Origin: Thermodesulfovibrionales bacterium
GTDB taxonomy: Bacteria; Nitrospirota; Thermodesulfovibrionia; Thermodesulfovibrionales; UBA6898
Length of the DNA: 25,526 nt
NCBI GenBank assembly: GCA_044450345.1
Contig: JBIOIY010000045.1
Coordinates: 1-25,526, forward strand
Direction: 5' to 3'
This document shows positions 1 to 8,126 of this stretch, one piece after another. The position numbers and the translations under genes were made by a program. Each line of letters begins with the position of its first letter. The stretch's first letter is position 1. Below the pieces are notes generated by a model. That model had not been told where the DNA came from, did no database searches, and was given only the letters and a program-made list of their open reading frames with translations.

Positions 1-303
1 CCCTGCGTGTCACCCCTGTTACCCCGGGAGCCCATCTATCGGTTACGGTAGTTATTGTCAAGATAGATGCTGCGGTCTTCCCCCTTGTCGGACGGGGTCG
101 ACAACTCCATTTTGCGTTTCGAGGCTACATCCGGGTTCGCGATCGCTGCGACCCGCAGGCTCGCTCAGTTCCCTTTCGGAACCTTTGTCAAGAAACTTAG
201 TGTTTCAGGTTACCCTTTACACCTCCTTCAAGCTACGTGGGTGAGCTACCGAACTCCCACGGCTGGACTTTAACCAGCAAGTCATACGTTTTACACGGCA
301 TAC
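1..303 (-). mobile_element. Group II intron, 5' portion (domain I), running off the left edge of the window
   Basis: Minus strand begins GTATGCCGTG...GCTGGTTAAAGTCCAGCC, resembling bacterial group II intron 5' ends (GUGYG-like). A CCCC/GGGG stem-loop at 81-97 displays CCGACAA (85-91), the exact complement of the last 7 nt of the 5' exon TTGTCGG (304-310), i.e. EBS1-IBS1. No RT ORF or domain V lies inside the window. Confidence 0.85.
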
Positions 304-529: not shown

Positions 530-559
530 TTGACACGGTCGCTGTTCTGCTTTTATACT
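530..559 (+). promoter_or_regulatory. Sigma70-type promoter for the leader/HMA2/porin unit
   Basis: TTGACA (530-535), 18-nt spacer, TATACT (554-559). Confidence 0.7.
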
Positions 560-608
560 TTAATGTCTTTAAACAAATCATTACTGCAGTCAAAAGGAGA
601 TGAAGCTA

Positions 609-707
609 ATGGACAGTGGCCCGAGTAGTCATAGTAGTAACGGCAATAGACTGATGGGGCGGATACCGGCGTGTTCATTGCTCACCTTGATCGTGAATCT
701 CTCCTAA
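609..707 (+). CDS. Putative leader peptide 1 (32 aa, MDSGPSSHSSNGNRLMGRIPACSLLTLIVNLS)
   Basis: AAGGAG at 594-599 before ATG 609. Homologous in the same reading frame to the ORF at 1209-1313. Too short for the ORF track. Confidence 0.6.
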   Translation: MDSGPSSHSSNGNRLMGRIPACSLLTLIVNLS

Positions 708-824
708 CACATCCTCTATCCTGACACGCTTTCTATCCTGACCCCCTCTGTAGGGAGGGTGCCCATCTGGTTTATTGCCGGCTTGTTATCAATTATTGGC
801 AACAAAACACAGGAGGTACGTGTC

Positions 825-1166
825 ATGTTCTACGTTCACAATGTGCCCGGAAGGGTAAGAATCATTAGTGAGGTTATCAAGAAAAACCCGCGGGCGGCCG
901 ACGAAGTGCGGAAGTGGCTGAGCACGCTTTCAGGCATTGGCACCGCTGATATTAATCTCACTACGGGCAGTATACTCGTTCATTACAATACCAAGACGGT
1001 CAATGCCTCAGATATTGTGAATCTCCTTGAGAGGAAGGGATATTTCGACCCGACCAAGGCTATTTCAAACGATGAGTATTTGAAGAATGGCCTTTCGAAG
1101 GCCGGGGCAATAGTGCTAAAATCCATAGTTGAACCCTTTATCGGAAGCGCCATCGGCCTGCTTTAA
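825..1166 (+). CDS. HMA2 (heavy-metal-associated 2) domain protein
   Basis: YVHNVPGRVRI...GI..ADINLTTGSILVHY pattern of the HMA2 family. AGGAGG at 811-816 favours ATG 825 over GTG 759. Confidence 0.8.
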   Translation: MFYVHNVPGRVRIISEVIKKNPRAADEVRKWLSTLSGIGTADINLTTGSILVHYNTKTVNASDIVNLLERKGYFDPTKAISNDEYLKNGLSKAGAIVLKSIVEPFIGSAIGLL

Positions 1167-1208
1167 ATAACAGCTAATTTTATACCCAGACGAAGGAGGT
1201 GATGGTCT

Positions 1209-1313
1209 GTGGACGATGGCCCTGCTAATAGTAGCAATAACAGAATAGTAAACATATGCTTGCTGGAAAGAGGGGCTTGTTCATTGCGCACCACTACTCT
1301 TCATCTCCCCTGA
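1209..1313 (+). CDS. Putative leader peptide 2 (34 aa, MDDGPANSSNNRIVNICLLERGACSLRTTTLHLP)
   Basis: Strong SD AAGGAGGTGA at 1193-1202, GTG start at 1209, TGA at 1311-1313. Shares MDxGP, the S/N-rich tract and ACSLxT with 609-707. Confidence 0.6.
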   Translation: MDDGPANSSNNRIVNICLLERGACSLRTTTLHLP

Positions 1314-1345
1314 CGCGCGATTTCCTCTTTTTCCGATGCTATAAG

Positions 1346-1428
1346 TCCTTCACTCCAGCAAGCGCAACTACTCCGGGAATATGCCTGGAGCGTGTGACTT
1401 GAAACAAAAACGCTGGACGTGAAGGAGG
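1346..1428 (+). promoter_or_regulatory. Anti-SD / SD-sequestering structure in the porin leader
   Basis: TCCTTCACTCCAGC (1346-1359) pairs with GCTGGA(C)GTGAAGGA (1412-1426), 14 bp with one bulge, overlapping the porin SD. Inner hairpin CTCCGGG/CCTGGAG at 1371-1390. Confidence 0.55.
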
Positions 1429-1434
1429 TCAAAC

Positions 1435-2862
1435 ATGCTGAAAACACAAGAAGTGACAAAGAGAATAAAATATTGTCTGGCATTTTTTTGCTTGATTCTT
1501 TTGTTCAATATCTCGCAAGCAGCTTATGCTGACCCTGGCGTTGCTCAGCCGCCGGCGAAAGAGTCACAAGGGCAGCAGCCGGAACAGACGAAAGAGGATC
1601 AGCCATCATGGATACCTAAATTGCTGGGACTGCAGTTCAATGGCGTATACCAAAACGTTCCCGGCTTTCACAGCCCATATGCCGGAGATCACAGTTTCAG
1701 GACCGACGAGGGCTTCGGACATAACATCACCCATATCTATGGAATATATCTGGGCTCTCAATTAGCACCTACACTGCAGGTCTATCTCGATATCGAAATG
1801 GCAAAAGGCTCAGGAGTGAGCAAGGGGCAGGGCCTTGGCGGGTATGTTAATGGAGATGTAATCAGAGTGGGATCGGTAGACCTCGGAACCGGCCCCTATA
1901 TAGCGCGAGCATATCTGCGCTATTACTATCCACTGTCCGCTGAAACCGAAAAGGCGGAACGGGCAATGGACCAGCTCCCTGGAAACGAGCCTATCAAACG
2001 CATCGATATAAAAGCCGGTAAAATGTCGCCAAGTGATGATTTCGATCTAAACCGGTATGCTAACAACACGCGTAACCAGTTCCTCAACTATGCGTTTATT
2101 TACAATCCGGCCTGGGATGAAGCAAGCGATACCCGGGGCTATAGCTATGGGGTTGTCACAGCTCTTGTTCAGCCGAAATGGAGATTGGCCTTCGGCCTTT
2201 ATATGATGCCGACCTTCGCCAACGGCGCCACATTCGATACACGGATGTTCCAGGCCCAGGGAAGCAATCTTGAGCTTACTGTCAAACCTAATGACTCGGG
2301 AACGGTGATACGCTTGCTGACTTATGTGAACCGGGCACGCATGGGTAATTATGATGAGGCATTAGCGATAGGACTTGATAGTTCTTCGACACCCGATGTC
2401 AGAGCCGATGAGAAGCCCGGACGCACCAAATATGGTTTTGGTCTGAACTTTGAACAACCATTAGCGGACGATGGAGAAACCGGCATTTTTGCCCGATTAG
2501 GATGGAATGACGGGCATAATGAGAACTTTTGCTACACCGAAGTTGACCAGCATCTGAGCCTTGGCACCCAGGTGAGCGGCATACATTGGGGGCGCCGTGA
2601 AGATCGTGTAGGAATAGCTTATGCAGTGCAGGGCATATCAACTCTACATAAAAACTACCTGGCGGCCGGAGGTCTCGGAATGTTAATAGGTGACGGCAGA
2701 CTGAGTTATGGGCTTGAACAGGTATTTGAAGCTTATTATCGCGTCCAGATCGGCAAATATGCTCAGGTTTCCCCGGATTTTCAGTACATCCAAAACCCCG
2801 GGTATAACCAGGACCGTGGACCTGCAAAAGTATACGGCATGCGTTTGCGCCTGAGCTACTGA
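1435..2862 (+). CDS. OprB-family porin, MnoP-like (divalent-metal outer-membrane channel)
   Basis: Signal peptide; motifs YIARAYLR, FDLNRYANNTRNQFLN, WDEASDTRGYSYG, NPGYNQDRGP; C-terminal aromatic residue (RLSY); metal-transport neighbours. Confidence 0.8.
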   Translation: MLKTQEVTKRIKYCLAFFCLILLFNISQAAYADPGVAQPPAKESQGQQPEQTKEDQPSWIPKLLGLQFNGVYQNVPGFHSPYAGDHSFRTDEGFGHNITHIYGIYLGSQLAPTLQVYLDIEMAKGSGVSKGQGLGGYVNGDVIRVGSVDLGTGPYIARAYLRYYYPLSAETEKAERAMDQLPGNEPIKRIDIKAGKMSPSDDFDLNRYANNTRNQFLNYAFIYNPAWDEASDTRGYSYGVVTALVQPKWRLAFGLYMMPTFANGATFDTRMFQAQGSNLELTVKPNDSGTVIRLLTYVNRARMGNYDEALAIGLDSSSTPDVRADEKPGRTKYGFGLNFEQPLADDGETGIFARLGWNDGHNENFCYTEVDQHLSLGTQVSGIHWGRREDRVGIAYAVQGISTLHKNYLAAGGLGMLIGDGRLSYGLEQVFEAYYRVQIGKYAQVSPDFQYIQNPGYNQDRGPAKVYGMRLRLSY

Positions 2863-2881: not shown

Positions 2882-3034
2882 ATGAATATTTTCACACAGT
2901 TGTATTACAGCTATAGAAGGATCATCAAGGCAATTCAGCTTTTTCTTATTATCTCGGGTCCGGGCATCATCGTCATGATTGCCGACAACGATGCCGGTAG
3001 CATTACGAGAGGTCAACGCATCATTTTGGATTGA
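2882..3034 (+). pseudogene. N-terminal remnant of an NRAMP-related (SLC11; NRMT-like) divalent cation transporter
   Basis: Translates MNIFTQ...FLIISGPGIIVMIADNDAGSIT then RGQRIILD*. GPGxIxMxxDNDAG is the TM1 motif of the NRAMP-related clade. Only 50 codons; good SD (GGGAGG) upstream. Confidence 0.8.
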
Positions 3035-3629
3035 TCCTTACGCCGTCAAGATAGACCTCAAAATCGCGCAGCCCCCAGTAAAATGAACCTGCGTTTCTGT
3101 TGAACCGACCGGCGAAATATATGGGGATAAACTGAAGAACGCTCACCTTTCCTTCAGAAAGAGTCACATCGACTTCCTTCTGTAGAGCCTCTTCAGTTAT
3201 ACCAACATAGATTTTATAGGTGCCAGGCTTCAGCATGATGCGCTTCTCAAGAATATATTTCACGCCTTCGCCCCCTTCAGGATTTCTTTTCTCCTCTATA
3301 GTTTTCTGTTGAATATCCGGCATTCCCTTTGCCAGCCAAGTTACGCCTTGCCCTCCGATGTTAAAGACAAAAGGATATTCGGGTTTACCGTGAAGAGCGG
3401 ACCTAAATTCCAGGGGATAGAAGCCTTTTTTAGGCGTTTTCATCGTGGCTTGGATGGTCAATACACTAAATCCAGACGTAGGCATTCCATCCGTCAGCTC
3501 TTGAAAAACAGCCTCCTGTTCTATAGATTTTTCCCGGATCCGTTCGGTGACGGCGGTATTTGTTGCGCACCCTGCAAGTGCAATGGCAAGGAGCGCCGTA
3601 TAAATAATTGTGGTCTCAAGTATTCTCAT
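3021..3629 (-). CDS. Lipoprotein of unknown function
   Basis: MRILETTIIYTALLAIALAG-C lipobox; GGAG SD before ATG 3629; last gene of the minus-strand metal ABC operon. Confidence 0.8.
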   Translation of the reverse strand: MRILETTIIYTALLAIALAGCATNTAVTERIREKSIEQEAVFQELTDGMPTSGFSVLTIQATMKTPKKGFYPLEFRSALHGKPEYPFVFNIGGQGVTWLAKGMPDIQQKTIEEKRNPEGGEGVKYILEKRIMLKPGTYKIYVGITEEALQKEVDVTLSEGKVSVLQFIPIYFAGRFNRNAGSFYWGLRDFEVYLDGVRINPK

Positions 3630-3663
3630 GAAAATACTCCTTTGGTAAAGCTTGTTTTTCATC

Positions 3664-4542
3664 CTAAGGTCGTAAGCCCTTGGGGAGAATCTTGGCGACA
3701 ATCCACGCTATTGCGTAAAGCACGCCGAGAAGGACGACATCTGTGGGGCCGACGGGAAAGTCATATTGATAAGCGATCCAGAAACCCAAGAACGCAACCA
3801 CACCGCCGACCAGTGAGGCCAACATCATGAACTGGCGCATATTGTGTGCGAAGAGGTGCGCCATCAGCGCAGGGATCAGCAAAAATCCGAACGCAATCAG
3901 TGGACCGACGCTCAGCACCGCCATCGAGACGGTCAGGCCGATCAGTAAATAGAGGAGAATGTCCCAAAAAACGACTTTTTTGCGCAGTATCATCGCCATC
4001 TCGCGGTCGAACGAGACCAGGAGCAACTCCTTATGAAACAGTGCAAGCGTTGCGAGAACGATCGTGAGCGTGGCCGCCGTCAGCACGAGATCGAAATTGG
4101 AGATGGTGATGACCTCTCCTTTCAGCATATCGAGCCAACCGATCTCGCCGTAGGGGTTTTTTGAAAGCAGCAGGATGCTCAGCGCGGCTGCCACGACATA
4201 CGCAGTGCCGAGCCGGCCTTCGGGTTGTCCGTGCCCTCGTCGTTCCAGGAACGCCAGCACCAGGATCGCGGTCAGCGAGAATGTGATCGATCCGCCAAAG
4301 GCGAGCGCATGCGCGCTGTGTGCGCCGTGACCAGCCAGATTGAATCCGAGCCACATGGGAAGCGACAGTGCGACAGCGACGCCCGTCGAGGAAATTTGGG
4401 GCAGCGCCACACCCATGAACACCAGCCGGCGCATTACGAGAAACACGCCGACGAGCGGGCAAGCAAAGCCTATGAGCACGCTTGTGTAAATCGAGTTGCG
4501 CAAAAGAAAATCCGGCGAAAGAATCTGATAAAGCGATTCCAT
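3664..4542 (-). CDS. Metal (Zn/Mn-type) ABC transporter permease, ZnuB/MntB family
   Basis: Hydrophobic ABC-3 pattern (GVFLVMRRLVFMGVALPQ, KELLLVSFDREMA, VGPLIAFGFLLIPA). Start set at MESL (4542). Confidence 0.9.
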   Translation of the reverse strand: MESLYQILSPDFLLRNSIYTSVLIGFACPLVGVFLVMRRLVFMGVALPQISSTGVAVALSLPMWLGFNLAGHGAHSAHALAFGGSITFSLTAILVLAFLERRGHGQPEGRLGTAYVVAAALSILLLSKNPYGEIGWLDMLKGEVITISNFDLVLTAATLTIVLATLALFHKELLLVSFDREMAMILRKKVVFWDILLYLLIGLTVSMAVLSVGPLIAFGFLLIPALMAHLFAHNMRQFMMLASLVGGVVAFLGFWIAYQYDFPVGPTDVVLLGVLYAIAWIVAKILPKGLRP

Positions 4543-4543
4543 G

Positions 4544-5257
4544 TCAGTCGATCCCCCTTTCAAACATTTCAGCCATGCGTTTGGGTGTGAGCAGTTCCTG
4601 CGCTGAACCGTGGAGGACCTTTCCTTCATGAAGCCAGATAACTTGTTCAGCGTGCCGACGCACCTCCGCAAAGTCGTGTGTGACGAGCAGGACCGTTATC
4701 TTCCTTTCCTTGCGGATCTGCGAAATGAACTCCATCACTGCATGAGTCGCATCACGGTCCACACCCGCAGTGGGTTCATCAAGCACCAGGATGTCGGGCC
4801 TCGTTGTCAGTGCGCGGGCAATAAGCACGCGTTGTTTCTGGCCGCCTGAGAGTTCGGCAAACCGCTTGCGGGCAAAATCCTCAGCTCCGGCCGCACTCAG
4901 GCATTCGTGCGTGAAGGCACGTTCGACAGGGGGGACAAGACGCCCCGCACGCACGCGTCCGTACACACCCATCAGGGCAACCTCAAACGCTGTCAGCAGA
5001 TAGATCGGATCGAACTGGATGTATTGGGGCACGTACCCAAATACGAGGGGCGCACCCGCCGATGCGGTATCGATACGTCCCCCCACAGGTGGAAGCAGTC
5101 CAAGCATTGTCTTAAGCAGGGTCGATTTGCCCGATCCGTTTGCGCCGAGAACAGCTGTAAAACTGGCGCGGGCAATAGAGACGGAAATGCCGGATAGAAC
5201 AGCCTGGCCGTTGTAGCCGATACTCAGGTTGTCAAGTGTGATGAGTGTTTCATCCAT
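4544..5257 (-). CDS. Metal ABC transporter ATP-binding protein, ZnuC family
   Basis: Walker A GANGSGKST, LSGGQKQR signature, LVLDEPT Walker B, VTHD. Confidence 0.92.
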   Translation of the reverse strand: MDETLITLDNLSIGYNGQAVLSGISVSIARASFTAVLGANGSGKSTLLKTMLGLLPPVGGRIDTASAGAPLVFGYVPQYIQFDPIYLLTAFEVALMGVYGRVRAGRLVPPVERAFTHECLSAAGAEDFARKRFAELSGGQKQRVLIARALTTRPDILVLDEPTAGVDRDATHAVMEFISQIRKERKITVLLVTHDFAEVRRHAEQVIWLHEGKVLHGSAQELLTPKRMAEMFERGID

Positions 5258-5270
5258 AGTCTGTTGTGTG

Positions 5271-5297
5271 TGTCCGCCCGGAAAATCCGGGCGGACA
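5271..5297. other. Intercistronic hairpin between the binding-protein and ATPase genes (probable mRNA stabiliser/attenuator)
   Basis: Perfect 12-bp inverted repeat TGTCCGCCCGGA-AAA-TCCGGGCGGACA with no U-tract. Confidence 0.6.
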
Positions 5298-5310
5298 TCC
5301 TCTCCTGTTT

Positions 5311-6240
5311 TTATTTTCTGCCTTGTACGGCATTAGCCATCGTGTGAATAATATAGTCCATCATCTTTATGTACGTTTCAGTGTTCGGCACACCGCCAGG
5401 CATGATGGGCAACGTTACCATGGTCGCGCCGGTTTGCTCGGCAATGCGTTTCGGCACCTTTTCAGGAAACTGCGGTTCGCGCACGACGATTGGCACATGC
5501 TGGGCTTTCATTGAGGCGGCCAGTTCCTCGATGTGACGTGCCGTCGGATCGATGCCAGGCCTTAGTTCAATCGTGCCGAAATAGTCCATGCCGAAGCGCG
5601 TAGCGAAGTATGGCCAATGCTCGTGATAGGATACGAACTTCACCCCCCTGAGCGGTTTGACTTCCTTCTCCCATTCGGCGATCTTGGCGTTGAGCTTTAC
5701 GAGATACGCATCGCGGTTGCGCGTGAATTGCGCCTTGTCCTGCGGGGCGAATTCTACAAGCGCGTTATAGATATTCTCGATCGCAATCTTAGCCGACACC
5801 GGATCAAGCATGTAGTGAGGGTTACCGTAGGGGTGAACATCCCCCGCGGAGTGCTCGGTTGACTTGGGCACATCTCGTGGGATGATGCCCCTGGAGCAAT
5901 CCACATAGCCGGACCTGTTTACCTGGATGCGCGGATTCTTGCTCGCCTCCAGCAACGCCGGAAGGAAGGCGTGTTCACAATCCATACCCACCAGGATCAT
6001 CAGGTCAGTCCGGTTCATCATCGGTACAAAGCTCGGTTTCATAGGCACCCCGTGCGTGTCTTCGACGCCGGTGGCCAGGCTGTGGACCTCGACCAAATCA
6101 CCACCCACAGCCCTGGCAAAGTCAGCTAAGTCAGTGAGTGTCGTGACAACACGGATTTTAGCCGCATGGGCCGGCGCTACGCCCATACAAAATACCCCGA
6201 CCAAGATGATCGAGAACAAACAAAACAGTTTTGATTTCAT
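5311..6240 (-). CDS. Metal ABC transporter substrate-binding protein, ZnuA/TroA family
   Basis: Signal peptide, KIRVVTT, His motifs EDTHG, GDVHPYGNPHYMLDP and YHEHW. AGGAGG SD before ATG 6240. Confidence 0.92.
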   Translation of the reverse strand: MKSKLFCLFSIILVGVFCMGVAPAHAAKIRVVTTLTDLADFARAVGGDLVEVHSLATGVEDTHGVPMKPSFVPMMNRTDLMILVGMDCEHAFLPALLEASKNPRIQVNRSGYVDCSRGIIPRDVPKSTEHSAGDVHPYGNPHYMLDPVSAKIAIENIYNALVEFAPQDKAQFTRNRDAYLVKLNAKIAEWEKEVKPLRGVKFVSYHEHWPYFATRFGMDYFGTIELRPGIDPTARHIEELAASMKAQHVPIVVREPQFPEKVPKRIAEQTGATMVTLPIMPGGVPNTETYIKMMDYIIHTMANAVQGRK

Positions 6241-6263
6241 GTTGATATTCCTCCTTTCCATAT

Positions 6264-7730
6264 TCAGCGCTGCTGCCAGCCATGAGAGTGCGAGCCGATG
6301 ATCCACGCCCATTGCACATAAACGGCATTGTCGGGCCGCAGGCCGGATACGGCATTGTGGTCCGTGTAGGTATATTGAAGCCGCAGTTGGTTCCAGTGGC
6401 TGAGCGCCCACGTGATATAAGGAGAGTACTCGGAAGTCTTGGCTTTGTTGTTCTGGGCATCCTCCACAAAGCCATACAAAAACCCGGTTGACCACTGTCT
6501 ATGGAATTTGTAAGTGAGATACGAGTAAAGGCCTAAGGAGCCTACCTTGCTGCCGAGCAGAGCATTGCCTGAGGAATCAGTTACGTCATAACGGTTGTCA
6601 CTGTAAAGCACTTCAGTGCCCCAGGTGAGGCTCTGGAACTGATTATTACGGAGCGGCTTCCAGCTCAGCGCCAGGTCTGCCCCGACCAGACGACGCTCGC
6701 GTTCGGTAAACGTGTTGTTATTTATATCCGTGGGTAGCGGAGCAACGTTAGGGTCCCACTGACCTTTAGTATGCGGATTCCAGAGGCCTGAAACTCCGGG
6801 TTCGAGTGAGATATCGGGTGTCAGGTCGAAATACGTGGACAAGCGTCCGAAGTAATTCCAGCCGCTTAAATGACGGAACTGGCCGACATCGTTCGGTGGG
6901 TTGTCGCCTCCAAACTGATTGCCGACACCCAGCGTGAGACTGATGTAATGTTCGACCGGCAGCAGCCAATTAACCTGTATCCCGTCAGTCCTTGATTCGC
7001 CGCCGATGTATTGGGCGAGCACCAGCGGACGATTTACGAATGGCAGCTCATGATCGTGGATATAGCCTAATCGACCGAACTCGCCAAAGAACCGACCCGC
7101 CTTCACAGTCAGATTCAAGGGCAGCGACTCTGTCTGGATTGCTGCTTCTTCGATGCTAAAAGTCGCTTCGCCGGTGTGTGCATCGGCTGACGCGTTAGCA
7201 ACCACGTAGGCCTTCGCAAAGGGATCCACCGACGCGGCCGTGTTCAGTTCCACGGACCGTTGGAAAGCGTCGAACCCGCCGGGCCGGCTGCTGCCCGTCT
7301 GCGAAGATCCCTTGCTGCGATAGGAGAAGACCGTTTCACCCACGAGCCCGATGGATGGATTGAACTCACTCGGCAAGACTTTCCTCTGCGCTTCGACCAC
7401 CTGATCCATCTGCTCCTTCAACTCTTGAACCTGCTGCTGCATCTGCCCGGCCTCCACAGGCTCGTTGACAGCAGCGCCCTTTGGCTGGACGGAGGGTTGG
7501 TTGTGTTTGACTTCGGCTTGCAGTTCTTCAATCAGCTTTCGCTGCTCACCAATTGTTTGGTCCTGTTTTCTCAGGGTTTCCTGAAGTCCTCTTATTTCTT
7601 GGATAGTTTGCTCCTGCTTCTTGAGGGCTTCCTCAAGAGTTCTTACTCGATCTTCCAGGGTTTCAGCAAATACGCCTGATGAAAACAATGCCAACATAAA
7701 TAGCGTAATAACCGTGATCACAATTTTCAT
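6264..7730 (-). CDS. Outer-membrane beta-barrel protein associated with Zn/Mn ABC transporters (N-terminal coiled coil, His-containing C-tail)
   Basis: Signal peptide, ~90-aa heptad-rich region, FNPSIG..VDPF..GRFFGEFGRL..HDHELPFV, alternating beta-strand pattern, ends WIIGSHSHGWQQR; GGAGG SD. Confidence 0.75.
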   Translation of the reverse strand: MKIVITVITLFMLALFSSGVFAETLEDRVRTLEEALKKQEQTIQEIRGLQETLRKQDQTIGEQRKLIEELQAEVKHNQPSVQPKGAAVNEPVEAGQMQQQVQELKEQMDQVVEAQRKVLPSEFNPSIGLVGETVFSYRSKGSSQTGSSRPGGFDAFQRSVELNTAASVDPFAKAYVVANASADAHTGEATFSIEEAAIQTESLPLNLTVKAGRFFGEFGRLGYIHDHELPFVNRPLVLAQYIGGESRTDGIQVNWLLPVEHYISLTLGVGNQFGGDNPPNDVGQFRHLSGWNYFGRLSTYFDLTPDISLEPGVSGLWNPHTKGQWDPNVAPLPTDINNNTFTERERRLVGADLALSWKPLRNNQFQSLTWGTEVLYSDNRYDVTDSSGNALLGSKVGSLGLYSYLTYKFHRQWSTGFLYGFVEDAQNNKAKTSEYSPYITWALSHWNQLRLQYTYTDHNAVSGLRPDNAVYVQWAWIIGSHSHGWQQR

Positions 7731-7829: not shown

Positions 7830-8126
7830 TTAAACAGGAGGAGCCCGGCAGGGCAGAAGAGAAACCCGTATGGAATCATATAGCAATGACACCTTAGGTA
7901 TTTCATTACTCGAAACGGGGTGTTGATTTGTGATGGAGAAAAATGCAATGTTTGCAGATGAATAATGATGCCCGGCAGCACAAGCAGGGCAGTCGTGATG
8001 TTCGCTGCCGTCTTCGTGATGGTGAAACGCTGTTGCTAAAGTCGCCGTTACGAAAAGAAGCAAGAAGATAAAAGCCAATCTTCCTGTCTTACCAATATAG
8101 CTATTTCTTCTGTATGGTCTTATCAT
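7830..8126 (-). CDS. DUF2946-like leader protein with a His/CxxC metal site and C-terminal RAPP arrest-type motif
   Basis: Hydrophobic segment, HHHEDGSEHHDCPAC, C-terminus PCRAPPV; first ORF of the metal-uptake operon. Confidence 0.75.
   Translation of the reverse strand: MIRPYRRNSYIGKTGRLAFIFLLLFVTATLATAFHHHEDGSEHHDCPACAAGHHYSSANIAFFSITNQHPVSSNEIPKVSLLYDSIRVSLLPCRAPPV

Follow-up and report, generated by a model that had tools for sequence, protein, structure and literature searches.

The stretch of DNA analysed here (the window) covers positions 1 to 25,526 of contig JBIOIY010000045.1 of a Thermodesulfovibrionales bacterium (assembly GCA_044450345.1). It carries an operon in which a leader open reading frame (ORF), a gene for an HMA_2 domain protein, a second leader ORF, a gene for an OprB-family porin and a truncated NRAMP-type transporter gene follow a promoter-like site (Table 1). 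A preliminary description of the sequence had placed two leader ORFs with strong Shine-Dalgarno (SD) sequences at 609-707 and 1209-1313, and both are present there; Pfam matches agree with its view that such leaders lie ahead of HMA_2, porin and NRAMP-related genes. The TATACT box of the promoter-like site is visible at the same distance in homologues, a further in-frame ATG for leader ORF 1 stands at 600 in the ORF list, and the SD of leader ORF 2 opens 27 bases past the stop of the HMA_2 gene. We propose, with a probability of roughly 0.55, that each copy of this element is a cis-acting translated leader of about 230-250 nucleotides (nt) in which alternative RNA pairings govern translation of the following gene, in the manner of the ermC and cat leaders. 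The element would then be an uncatalogued leader-peptide attenuator, with no Rfam family, that masks its own leader, begins its peptide in the style of MgtL and has a translational output.

The element has relatives inside and outside its genome. By nhmmer the genome holds three copies only, the third of which is 83% identical to copy 1 and lies directly 5' of a full-length NRAMP gene of the NRMT type. When 317 genomes of the order were searched with blastn, nine genomes besides this one gave strong matches (E <= 3e-6), and none of the other 53 genomes of the same family gave a match of that strength (E 3e-6 or lower). Pattern scans found 31 stretches in metagenomes and 10 in a collection of species-representative genomes; the latter are labelled Nitrospirae, Nitrospirota, Nitrospiraceae, Thermodesulfovibrionales or Dissulfurispiraceae, with Syntrophales as the one exception. 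Across all loci (own genome, related genomes and metagenomes) nhmmer returned 83 hits that reduce to 56 distinct copies, nearly all of them labelled Nitrospirota or Thermodesulfovibrionales, and the element is so far confined to Nitrospirota of the Thermodesulfovibrionales type.

The copies across the family also have the neighbours that the preliminary description anticipated, mostly HMA_2, Nramp and OprB genes. Among 49 copies, the first downstream ORF encodes HMA_2 in 20, Nramp in 6, OprB in 4, an outer-membrane family of the Phenol_MetA_deg type in 2, MgtC in 1 and SCO1 in 1; the ORFs without a Pfam match (15 of 49) are mostly truncated N-terminal fragments. The SCO1 case, at locus L037, has a type-1-like leader at 2471-2602, then 233 nt, then a SCO1/SenC-family gene at 1665-2249, and is the sole downstream Pfam match outside the metal-transport set.

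Three subtypes can be told apart by their peptides. Type 1 reads MDxGPSSHSS...GR..ACSLLTS..NLS, type 2 MDDGPAxSSDN...LLERVGACSLRITALNL and type 3 MDDGPGNKRN..., and the middle sequences of the three are unrelated; divergent leader forms reading MDGDP are found as well. The order type 1, HMA_2, type 2, porin recurs in L010, L011, L012, L014 and L016, consistent with the modular translated switch, used twice per operon, that the preliminary description had envisaged. At two other loci, L100 (2790-2897) and L105 (2769-2879), divergent MDGDPGG... leaders lie directly 5' of the porin with no HMA_2 gene between; they come after a gene that resembles an ABC-transporter ATPase (a label given without a Pfam run). 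With nhmmer they score only 26 and 19 bits, so our searches did not reach the full breadth of the family.

The ORF is kept as a reading frame. A frame of 30-38 codons is intact in 50 of the 56 copies, and in the anatomy described here it spans 31-36 codons with a conserved stop position. Six copies depart from this: L024 is decayed, as its HMA_2 gene seems to be, L048_602 and L029_2478 stop early, L063 is frameshifted, L039_1946 is extended and L010_407 is masked; the start codon is ATG or GTG in all copies save the decayed L024. The distance from the start codon to its complement within the ORF (the anti-start) takes seven values, 56, 61, 64, 67, 70, 73 and 79, six of which equal 1 modulo 3 and cover 55 of the 56 copies. 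The non-coding interval between the anti-start and the HMA_2 start serves as a control: its 13 distinct lengths spread 7/4/2 over the three residues. Insertions and deletions in the variable part therefore preserve the frame, extending to the family what the preliminary description had seen in the two window copies.

The encoded peptide is under much less constraint than its frame. The ratio of non-synonymous to synonymous change (pN/pS) lies at 0.74-0.78, and change is equally frequent at each codon position (0.39, 0.39 and 0.38), with no excess at the third. Even in the best conserved part, the C-terminal ACSLLTS block, pN/pS is 0.65-1.16, and its common substitutions, TCA/CCA (Ser/Pro) and ACC/ATC (Thr/Ile), alter the residue while keeping a G-C or G-U pair in the RNA. 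A functional small protein, for instance a transporter regulator or chaperone like MgtR, MgtS or MntS, would account for a conserved ORF with a strong SD that always stands beside transport genes, and its His, Cys, Ser and Asp residues could bind metal. We consider it improbable in view of this pattern of substitution and of a peptide that has no hydrophobic segment, no Pfam match and a middle that is unrelated among the subtypes. A frame that is kept around a peptide that is hardly constrained points to a leader ORF, and bears the signature of one in which ribosome passage and the position of the stop matter and the peptide barely does.

The conserved bases of the ORF find partners in the RNA. 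The first helix, H1, joins the leader SD and start to UCACCUC and GUYCAU in the 3' third of the ORF. Its start portion, AUGGAC(A)/(U)GUUCAU, is present in both window copies, and across 54 copies its 6 base pairs (bp) are standard-paired in 99.1% of cells; SD:UCACCUC is paired in 88.4%. Together the two helices of H1 are paired in 93.0% of cells; sliding the partner by 1-3 columns lowers this to 38-59%. The SD can alternatively pair with the UCUCCU that precedes the stop, as it does in 92.0% of cells, where the slid controls are themselves high (51-84%) because the region is CU-rich. Both the start and the pre-stop pairing had been noticed in the window beforehand and drawn as one long hairpin with the Ser and Asn codons in a variable loop. 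The SD and start pairings of that drawing are conserved, but the middle of the ORF pairs with a distal segment instead.

Sequestration of the SD and start by the 3' part of the same ORF would also be expected of a type I toxin-antitoxin-like mRNA, whose 5' part pairs with its 3' part and so keeps a toxic peptide silent. The peptide, though, is polar (mean hydropathy -0.17, best 15-residue window 0.95), no promoter-like site was found on the minus strand between 400 and 1500, and the element is always within metal-transport operons, twice per operon, with helices that reach the ribosome-binding site (RBS) of the next gene. Such a toxin, which the preliminary description had already ranked below a regulatory leader, is very improbable.

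The distal pairing of the ORF middle is helix H2, in which GGCAAAAAAC (642-651) meets GUUUUUUGCC (770-779) at a distance of about 130 nt; across the family the partner lies 60-130 nt downstream of the ORF middle. The counts for H2 come from alignment A5, which holds 17 leaders of the type-1-to-HMA_2 kind. Its 10-bp core is paired in 95.9% of cells (slid, 41-65%), 4 of the 10 pairs show compensatory change and 0 of 500 shuffles reach the observed value; among the two-sided changes are U:A in the window for A:U elsewhere and GGU:ACC for GGC:GCC. The extended type 1 duplex has a mean energy of -28.8 kcal/mol, against -20.6 +/- 3.6 kcal/mol with shuffled partners, and the cognate partner beats a non-cognate one in 212 of 272 comparisons. 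NRMT-linked type 1 copies give -27.1 against -22.1 kcal/mol.

The other subtypes build an H2-type pairing from unrelated sequences. In type 2, GCUUGC...GAGUGGGG pairs with CCCCACUC...GCAAGC (-28.2 against -19.4 kcal/mol shuffled; cognate better in 80 of 110); by columns it is paired in 91.5% of cells against 31-49% slid. Type 3 gives -26.6 against -19.4 kcal/mol, and the four long type-2 leaders only -21.0 against -18.7 kcal/mol.

Two further helices connect the ORF to the downstream gene. H3 joins GCGUGUY (669-675), which overlaps the anti-start, to GACACGC (723-729); it is paired in 94.0% of cells, with compensatory change in 2 of 7 pairs, and 14 of 500 shuffles reach it. H4 joins the anti-RBS box GACACGCUUUC (723-733) to GGAGG..ACGUGUC (812-824), the SD and spacer that lead up to the start codon of HMA_2; it is paired in 96.2% of cells against 36-61% slid, and has no covariation. 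H1 and H3 share the three bases 673-675 and H3 and H4 share the anti-RBS box (723-729), so that each of these pairs of helices is mutually exclusive. RNAalifold folds the leaders as H2 plus H3 with a free downstream RBS when the 5' part is omitted and as H4 when the ORF is omitted. The informative helices emerged only from full leaders aligned within one subtype; on the 18-copy core RNAalifold gave the SD and start helices only, without covariation. In copy 2, segment 3 (1345-1363) has two alternative partners, the ORF middle at 1258-1276 (-30.4 kcal/mol) and the porin RBS region at 1411-1428 (-24.7 kcal/mol).

Two other roles considered for the distal U-rich segment were rejected. The U-run at 771-776 is no intrinsic terminator tail, being the 3' strand of H2 with compensatory changes. 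A direct pairing of this segment (segment 3, the U-tract) with the HMA_2 RBS was weak (-13.4 against -9.0 +/- 3.0 kcal/mol, cognate better in only 149 of 272), and the anti-RBS box at 723-733 replaced it as the partner of the RBS.

Table 1. Features of the leader-controlled operon in the window
Feature	Position	Strand	Details
Promoter-like site	530..559	+	TTGACA 530-535, 18-nt spacer, TATACT 554-559; 11/12 consensus matches
Leader ORF 1 SD GGAGATGA	596..603	+	5' strand of H1; family consensus GGAGGTGA
Leader ORF 1, type 1 MDSGPSSHSSNGNRLMGRIPACSLLTLIVNLS	609..707	+	32 codons, ATG at 609, TAA stop
H2 5' strand GGCAAUAGACUGAUGGGGC	642..660	+	Within ORF 1
H3 5' strand GCGUGUU 669-675, overlapping anti-start GUUCAU 673-678, and anti-SD UCACCUU 682-688	669..688	+	
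Second anti-SD UCUCCU	700..705	+	Immediately 5' of the ORF 1 stop
Anti-RBS box GACACGCUUUC	723..733	+	3' strand of H3 and 5' strand of H4
H2 3' strand GCCCAUCUGGUUUAUUGCC	761..779	+	
HMA_2 gene SD, spacer and start codon GGAGGUACGUGUCAUG	812..827	+	3' strand of H4
HMA_2 domain protein gene	825..1166	+	Pfam PF19991, E 1.2e-11
Leader ORF 2 SD GGAGGTGA	1195..1202	+	
Leader ORF 2, type 2 MDDGPANSSNNRIVNICLLERGACSLRTTTLHLP	1209..1313	+	34 codons, GTG start, TGA stop; anti-start GUUCAU 1279-1284
ORF 2 middle strand GCUUGCUGGAAAGAGGGGC	1258..1276	+	Pairs with 1345-1363
Copy 2 segment 3 GUCCUUCACUCCAGCAAGC	1345..1363	+	Pairs with 1258-1276 or the porin RBS
Porin ribosome-binding region CGCUGGACGUGAAGGAGG and start codon	1411..1437	+	
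OprB-family porin gene	1435..2862	+	Pfam PF04966, E 3.7e-36
NRMT-type NRAMP gene, truncated remnant	2882..3034	+	50 codons; ends just past DNDAG

Conserved long-range helices with covariation, a setting among metal-transport genes and a genome that has neither an M-box (RF00380) nor a yybP-ykoY element (RF00080) in covariance-model searches to serve instead could also be taken as signs of a riboswitch, an RNA that binds Mg2+ or Mn2+ and in which the ORF is incidental or part of the expression platform. The preliminary description had not recognised the region as an M-box, yybP-ykoY or NiCo riboswitch, and Rfam agrees: at gathering thresholds a scan of the window found a group II intron only, and a permissive scan of 450-1500 (E up to 10) gave only a chance snoRNA match (E 6.8). 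An untranslated aptamer would not need a frame that is kept through at least six length classes, the central region varies in sequence and length among the subtypes, no conserved multi-helix junction was found, all conserved helices are accounted for as mutually exclusive platform pairings, and there is no excess folding energy. A metal-binding aptamer is for these reasons an improbable explanation. The M-box differs from the element in being a protein-free aptamer of fixed architecture, whereas the element carries a frame-conserved ORF; the two are alike in their position, for published accounts place M-boxes 5' of some clostridial and deltaproteobacterial nrmT genes. A search of 151 genomes of the order found no M-box (0/151).

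On the output of the element our reading departs from the preliminary description, which had expected Rho-dependent termination. In that scheme, modelled on enterobacterial mgtA, a C-rich rut site past the ORF would be made available or concealed by leader translation and the choice between alternative stems, and Rho would end transcription short of the next gene. The pyrimidine-rich, G-poor tract on which it relied is real: the 80 nt from the anti-start have a mean of 34% C and 15% G, 35 of 52 copies have a C/G above 2, and a skew as strong is seen in about 1.3% of 80-nt windows drawn at random from the genome. The genome also has a rho gene, and no convincing intrinsic terminator was found, the one weak 5-bp candidate (767-781) being no more than shuffles give. 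The C-richness is, however, largely explained by the anti-SD, anti-start and anti-RBS strands, whose purine-rich partners are conserved, and the last conserved helix, H4, covers the SD and start of the gene that follows, as is characteristic of translational control; this points to RBS masking rather than Rho termination. We regard attenuation by Rho as unlikely; Rho-dependent and translational outputs could coexist.

A masked RBS at the end of a chain of exclusive helices recalls well-known attenuators. In the ermC and cat leaders, the pairings 1:2 and 3:4, which mask the RBS, alternate with 2:3, which leaves it free, and the switch is thrown by a ribosome stalled in a short leader ORF; these leaders are induced by antibiotic-bound ribosomes, control resistance genes and have a free leader SD. 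The element shares their four-segment logic, with H1, H3 and H4 as a chain of exclusive helices that ends on the SD and start of the regulated gene. It differs in that segment 1 includes the leader's own SD and start, in its extra H2 clamp and in its metal-transport genes.

A translational switch of this kind might operate as follows. In the naked RNA, H1 and H4 would form and both the leader and the downstream RBS would be masked (OFF). A ribosome would load on the leader only during RNA synthesis, before the anti-SD has been transcribed. Were it to linger on the first six or so codons as the distal segments emerge, H1 would be blocked, H3 and the H2 clamp would form, the anti-RBS box would be held and the downstream site would be exposed (ON). 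Were it to run through and terminate, H1 would re-form, H4 would follow and the leader would be locked again. Low free Mg2+ may lengthen the dwell on the early acidic, Gly/Pro-containing, small-residue N-terminus, as for MgtL, and this is the least certain step; scarcity of Mg2+, or possibly Mn2+, would then lead to production of the NRMT transporter, OprB porin, HMA_2 and MgtC proteins. Copy 2 would repeat the logic of copy 1 inside the operon with different helix sequences.

Thermodynamic modelling of accessibility is in line with the central step of this proposal in the 17 type-1-to-HMA_2 leaders. There the predicted unpaired probability of the downstream SD is 0.11 in the free RNA and 0.40 when the stretch from SD to codon 6 is blocked; blocking the ORF middle gives 0.06 and blocking the whole ORF 0.07. 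From these values and the conserved N-terminus we infer a signal-dependent ribosome stall on the first leader codons.

The N-terminus has a character of its own. Among the intact peptides of the first set, D2 and G4 occur in 50 of 50 and P5 in 44 of 50, DD fills positions 2-3 in 29 of 50, and residues 2-10 are almost exclusively S, D, G, P, N, H and A, with a mean volume of 101.9 Å3 against 132.5 Å3 for the remainder. Codons 2-5 have a pN/pS of 0.07 in types 2 and 3. The divergent MDGDP copies reach the same composition with other nucleotides (GGA GAC, not GAT GGC), so that composition and not bases appears to be kept. An acidic/Pro motif within the first six codons is thus present, as in leaders of the MgtL type.

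The same codons raise the alternative of classical attenuation, in which the leader would respond not to metal but to the charging or modification of the tRNAs that read its Ser(AGY), Asp, Asn and His codons at positions 2-11. In every subtype S, N, D and H abound at positions 6-11, and the AGU/AGC codons are conserved at the nucleotide level in type 1, but no single amino acid is consistently repeated across subtypes (type 3 has GNKRNS) and the genes concerned are for metal transport, not for amino acids. This makes a tRNA sensor an improbable reading.

A tie between such N-termini and Mg2+ has precedents in the literature. Early DE/P-rich N-termini of small residues are reported to pause or abort translation, more so at low Mg2+, and MgtL is reported to use this for sensing Mg2+. 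The MgtL/mgtA leader of Salmonella and E. coli, as those sources describe it, resembles the element in being a short leader ORF 5' of a Mg2+ uptake gene, in its acidic/Pro motif within the first six codons (MEPDPT in MgtL, MD(D)GP here) and in letting ribosome progress decide between alternative RNA stems. The analogy drawn in the preliminary description is therefore reasonable for the N-terminal motif, but the conserved pairings do not back an mgtA-type Rho output. There is no sequence or Rfam relationship between the two. The mgtA leader acts through Rho-dependent termination, and its gene is switched on by ribosome drop-off; in the element the last helix covers the SD and start of the gene behind it, and our model calls for pausing, not drop-off. 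The element also masks its own leader SD and start, lives in another host phylum and is used twice per operon. The N-terminal intrinsic-ribosome-destabilisation sequences of ybeX and corC are similar in their early DE/P-rich, small-residue N-terminus and in a proposed tie to Mg2+; they differ in acting on the synthesis of their own protein and not through a separate leader ORF coupled to RNA rearrangement.

More tentatively, the nascent M-D-(D/G)-(G/D)-P might itself be the metal sensor: a pause at low Mg2+ would, without aptamer or protein regulator, switch a self-locking leader that evolved independently in Nitrospirota, has a translational output and is stacked twice per operon. We hold this possible but doubtful.

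The genes that follow the element also speak to the signal. The preliminary description had guessed at an NRAMP-related transporter, and the solved structure closest to it is 7QIA (E 3.3e-61), with MntH structures at 4e-15 or weaker. This entry is cited in the paper on the NRMT of Eggerthella lenta, which gives the binding-site signature as D-x-x-G and T-x-x-A, with Trp replacing the first His. The motifs here read DAGG in transmembrane segment (TM) 1 and TTIAPW in TM6. Among the element-linked NRAMPs the TM6 motif T-x-x-A-P-W is found in 5 of 6, the sixth being a fragment that ends before TM6, and TM1 reads DAGG in the 4 where it was read; none has DPGN/MPH. By these motifs the element-linked NRAMP is of the NRMT type. 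The element does not accompany the canonical DPGN/MPH MntH gene of this genome. Because the context is one of NRMT, MgtC, porin and HMA_2 genes and the N-terminus resembles that of MgtL, scarcity of Mg2+ (or Mn2+) would by analogy be the signal, and this is the least certain of our conclusions; Fe2+, which the preliminary description had also named, has no support.

NRMT orthologues (at least 71% identity) occur in 20 of the 317 genomes of the order, and the element lies 5' of the orthologue in at least 13 of the 20 (G000, G070, G316, G119, G123, G122, G140, G118, G120, G116, G115, G114 and G137). For three more the position of the element is unplaced: the contigs of G300 and G315 are broken, with an element elsewhere in the assembly, and that of G144 is masked. 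The orthologous NRMT, like the element, is absent from the other 53 genomes of the same family searched, and the NRMT of the genome itself is 94% identical to that of G070 (L071), a genome of another family; the two observations together suggest that the cassette was acquired laterally.

Several observations weigh against the reading that we favour, some against its RNA switch and others against its sensor or signal. H1 and H4 have no compensatory change, both sides being conserved, as is expected of H1 because one of its strands must stay SD and start codon. The covariation of the type-2 H2 is not significant (10 sequences). For types 2 and 3 the energies of segment 3 with the RBS are only about 1-1.5 standard deviations better than shuffled, and the type-2 RBS helix was assessed by energies only, an alignment gap shifting the column register. 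Folded singly, neither window copy exceeds its shuffles in stability (z +0.82 and +0.33). Extended to 41 leaders of all types, the accessibility model gives noisy values (0.15 against 0.30): opening of the downstream SD rises by more than 0.1 in 17 leaders, falls in 2 and stays the same in 22, and some of the downstream starts were mis-picked. In E. coli an early acidic motif often causes ribosome drop-off, which here would restore H1 (OFF, the wrong polarity for an importer), so that the model needs pausing. Part of the N-terminal conservation may lie at the RNA level, since AUGGAC and GGCCC are helix strands, and at position 5 five of 50 peptides have R and one has H, with position 3 non-acidic in 21 of 50. 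As for the signal, EleNRMT is reported to carry both Mg2+ and Mn2+, and one NrmT without an M-box to behave as a Mn2+ transporter. No element was found in the roughly 4.5 kb fetched upstream of NRMT in G128, G134, G138 and G145.

If our reading is correct, control by a leader peptide would be described here for the first time for NRMT-type NRAMP transporters, OprB-like porins and HMA_2 proteins, and for the first time in Nitrospirota, in an order without an M-box in the genomes searched. Full-text searching of an open-access library brought up no account of a leader peptide 5' of NRMT genes or in Nitrospirota, which is not proof of absence. The poorly understood HMA_2 and OprB-like genes could tentatively be given a shared role in the acquisition of divalent cations. 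At about 240 nt and 32 codons, the element would offer a compact, covariation-supported test bed for asking whether early acidic/Pro nascent chains can sense cytoplasmic Mg2+ outside Enterobacteria. Should the nascent chain prove to be the sensor, Mg2+ sensing by ribosome destabilisation, known only from enterobacterial MgtL, would be a modular device in Nitrospirota, and two stacked copies could allow an outer-membrane channel and an inner-membrane NRMT to be controlled gene by gene.

The NRMT remnant of the window matches the full gene of L002 up to DNDAG and diverges thereafter, and the fragment at 2882-3034 has no Pfam match. It overlaps a convergent ORF of 226 amino acids (3021-3701, minus strand) without a Pfam match; the working NRMT copy of the genome, with its own leader, sits on another contig (C3). 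A second NRAMP paralogue with a DAPG motif lies at C13:12695-13978 (L068), directly after a gene fragment like the cytoplasmic CBS domain of MgtE, an arrangement discussed for some NrmT genes (PMC4072509). At the window edge, just upstream of the operon promoter, is a group II intron RNA of domains 1-4 (RF02005, 71.6 bits, E 2.1e-18; 12-271, minus strand). An operon of ZnuA, ABC-3 and ABC_tran genes for a Mn/Zn-type ABC importer (3664-6495, minus strand) is convergent to the leader-controlled operon and has no copy of the element. Further along, an ORF of 98 amino acids (7830-8126, minus strand) with no Pfam match has a His/Cys-rich stretch, HHHEDGSEHHDCPACAAGHHY, and possibly encodes a metal-binding protein.

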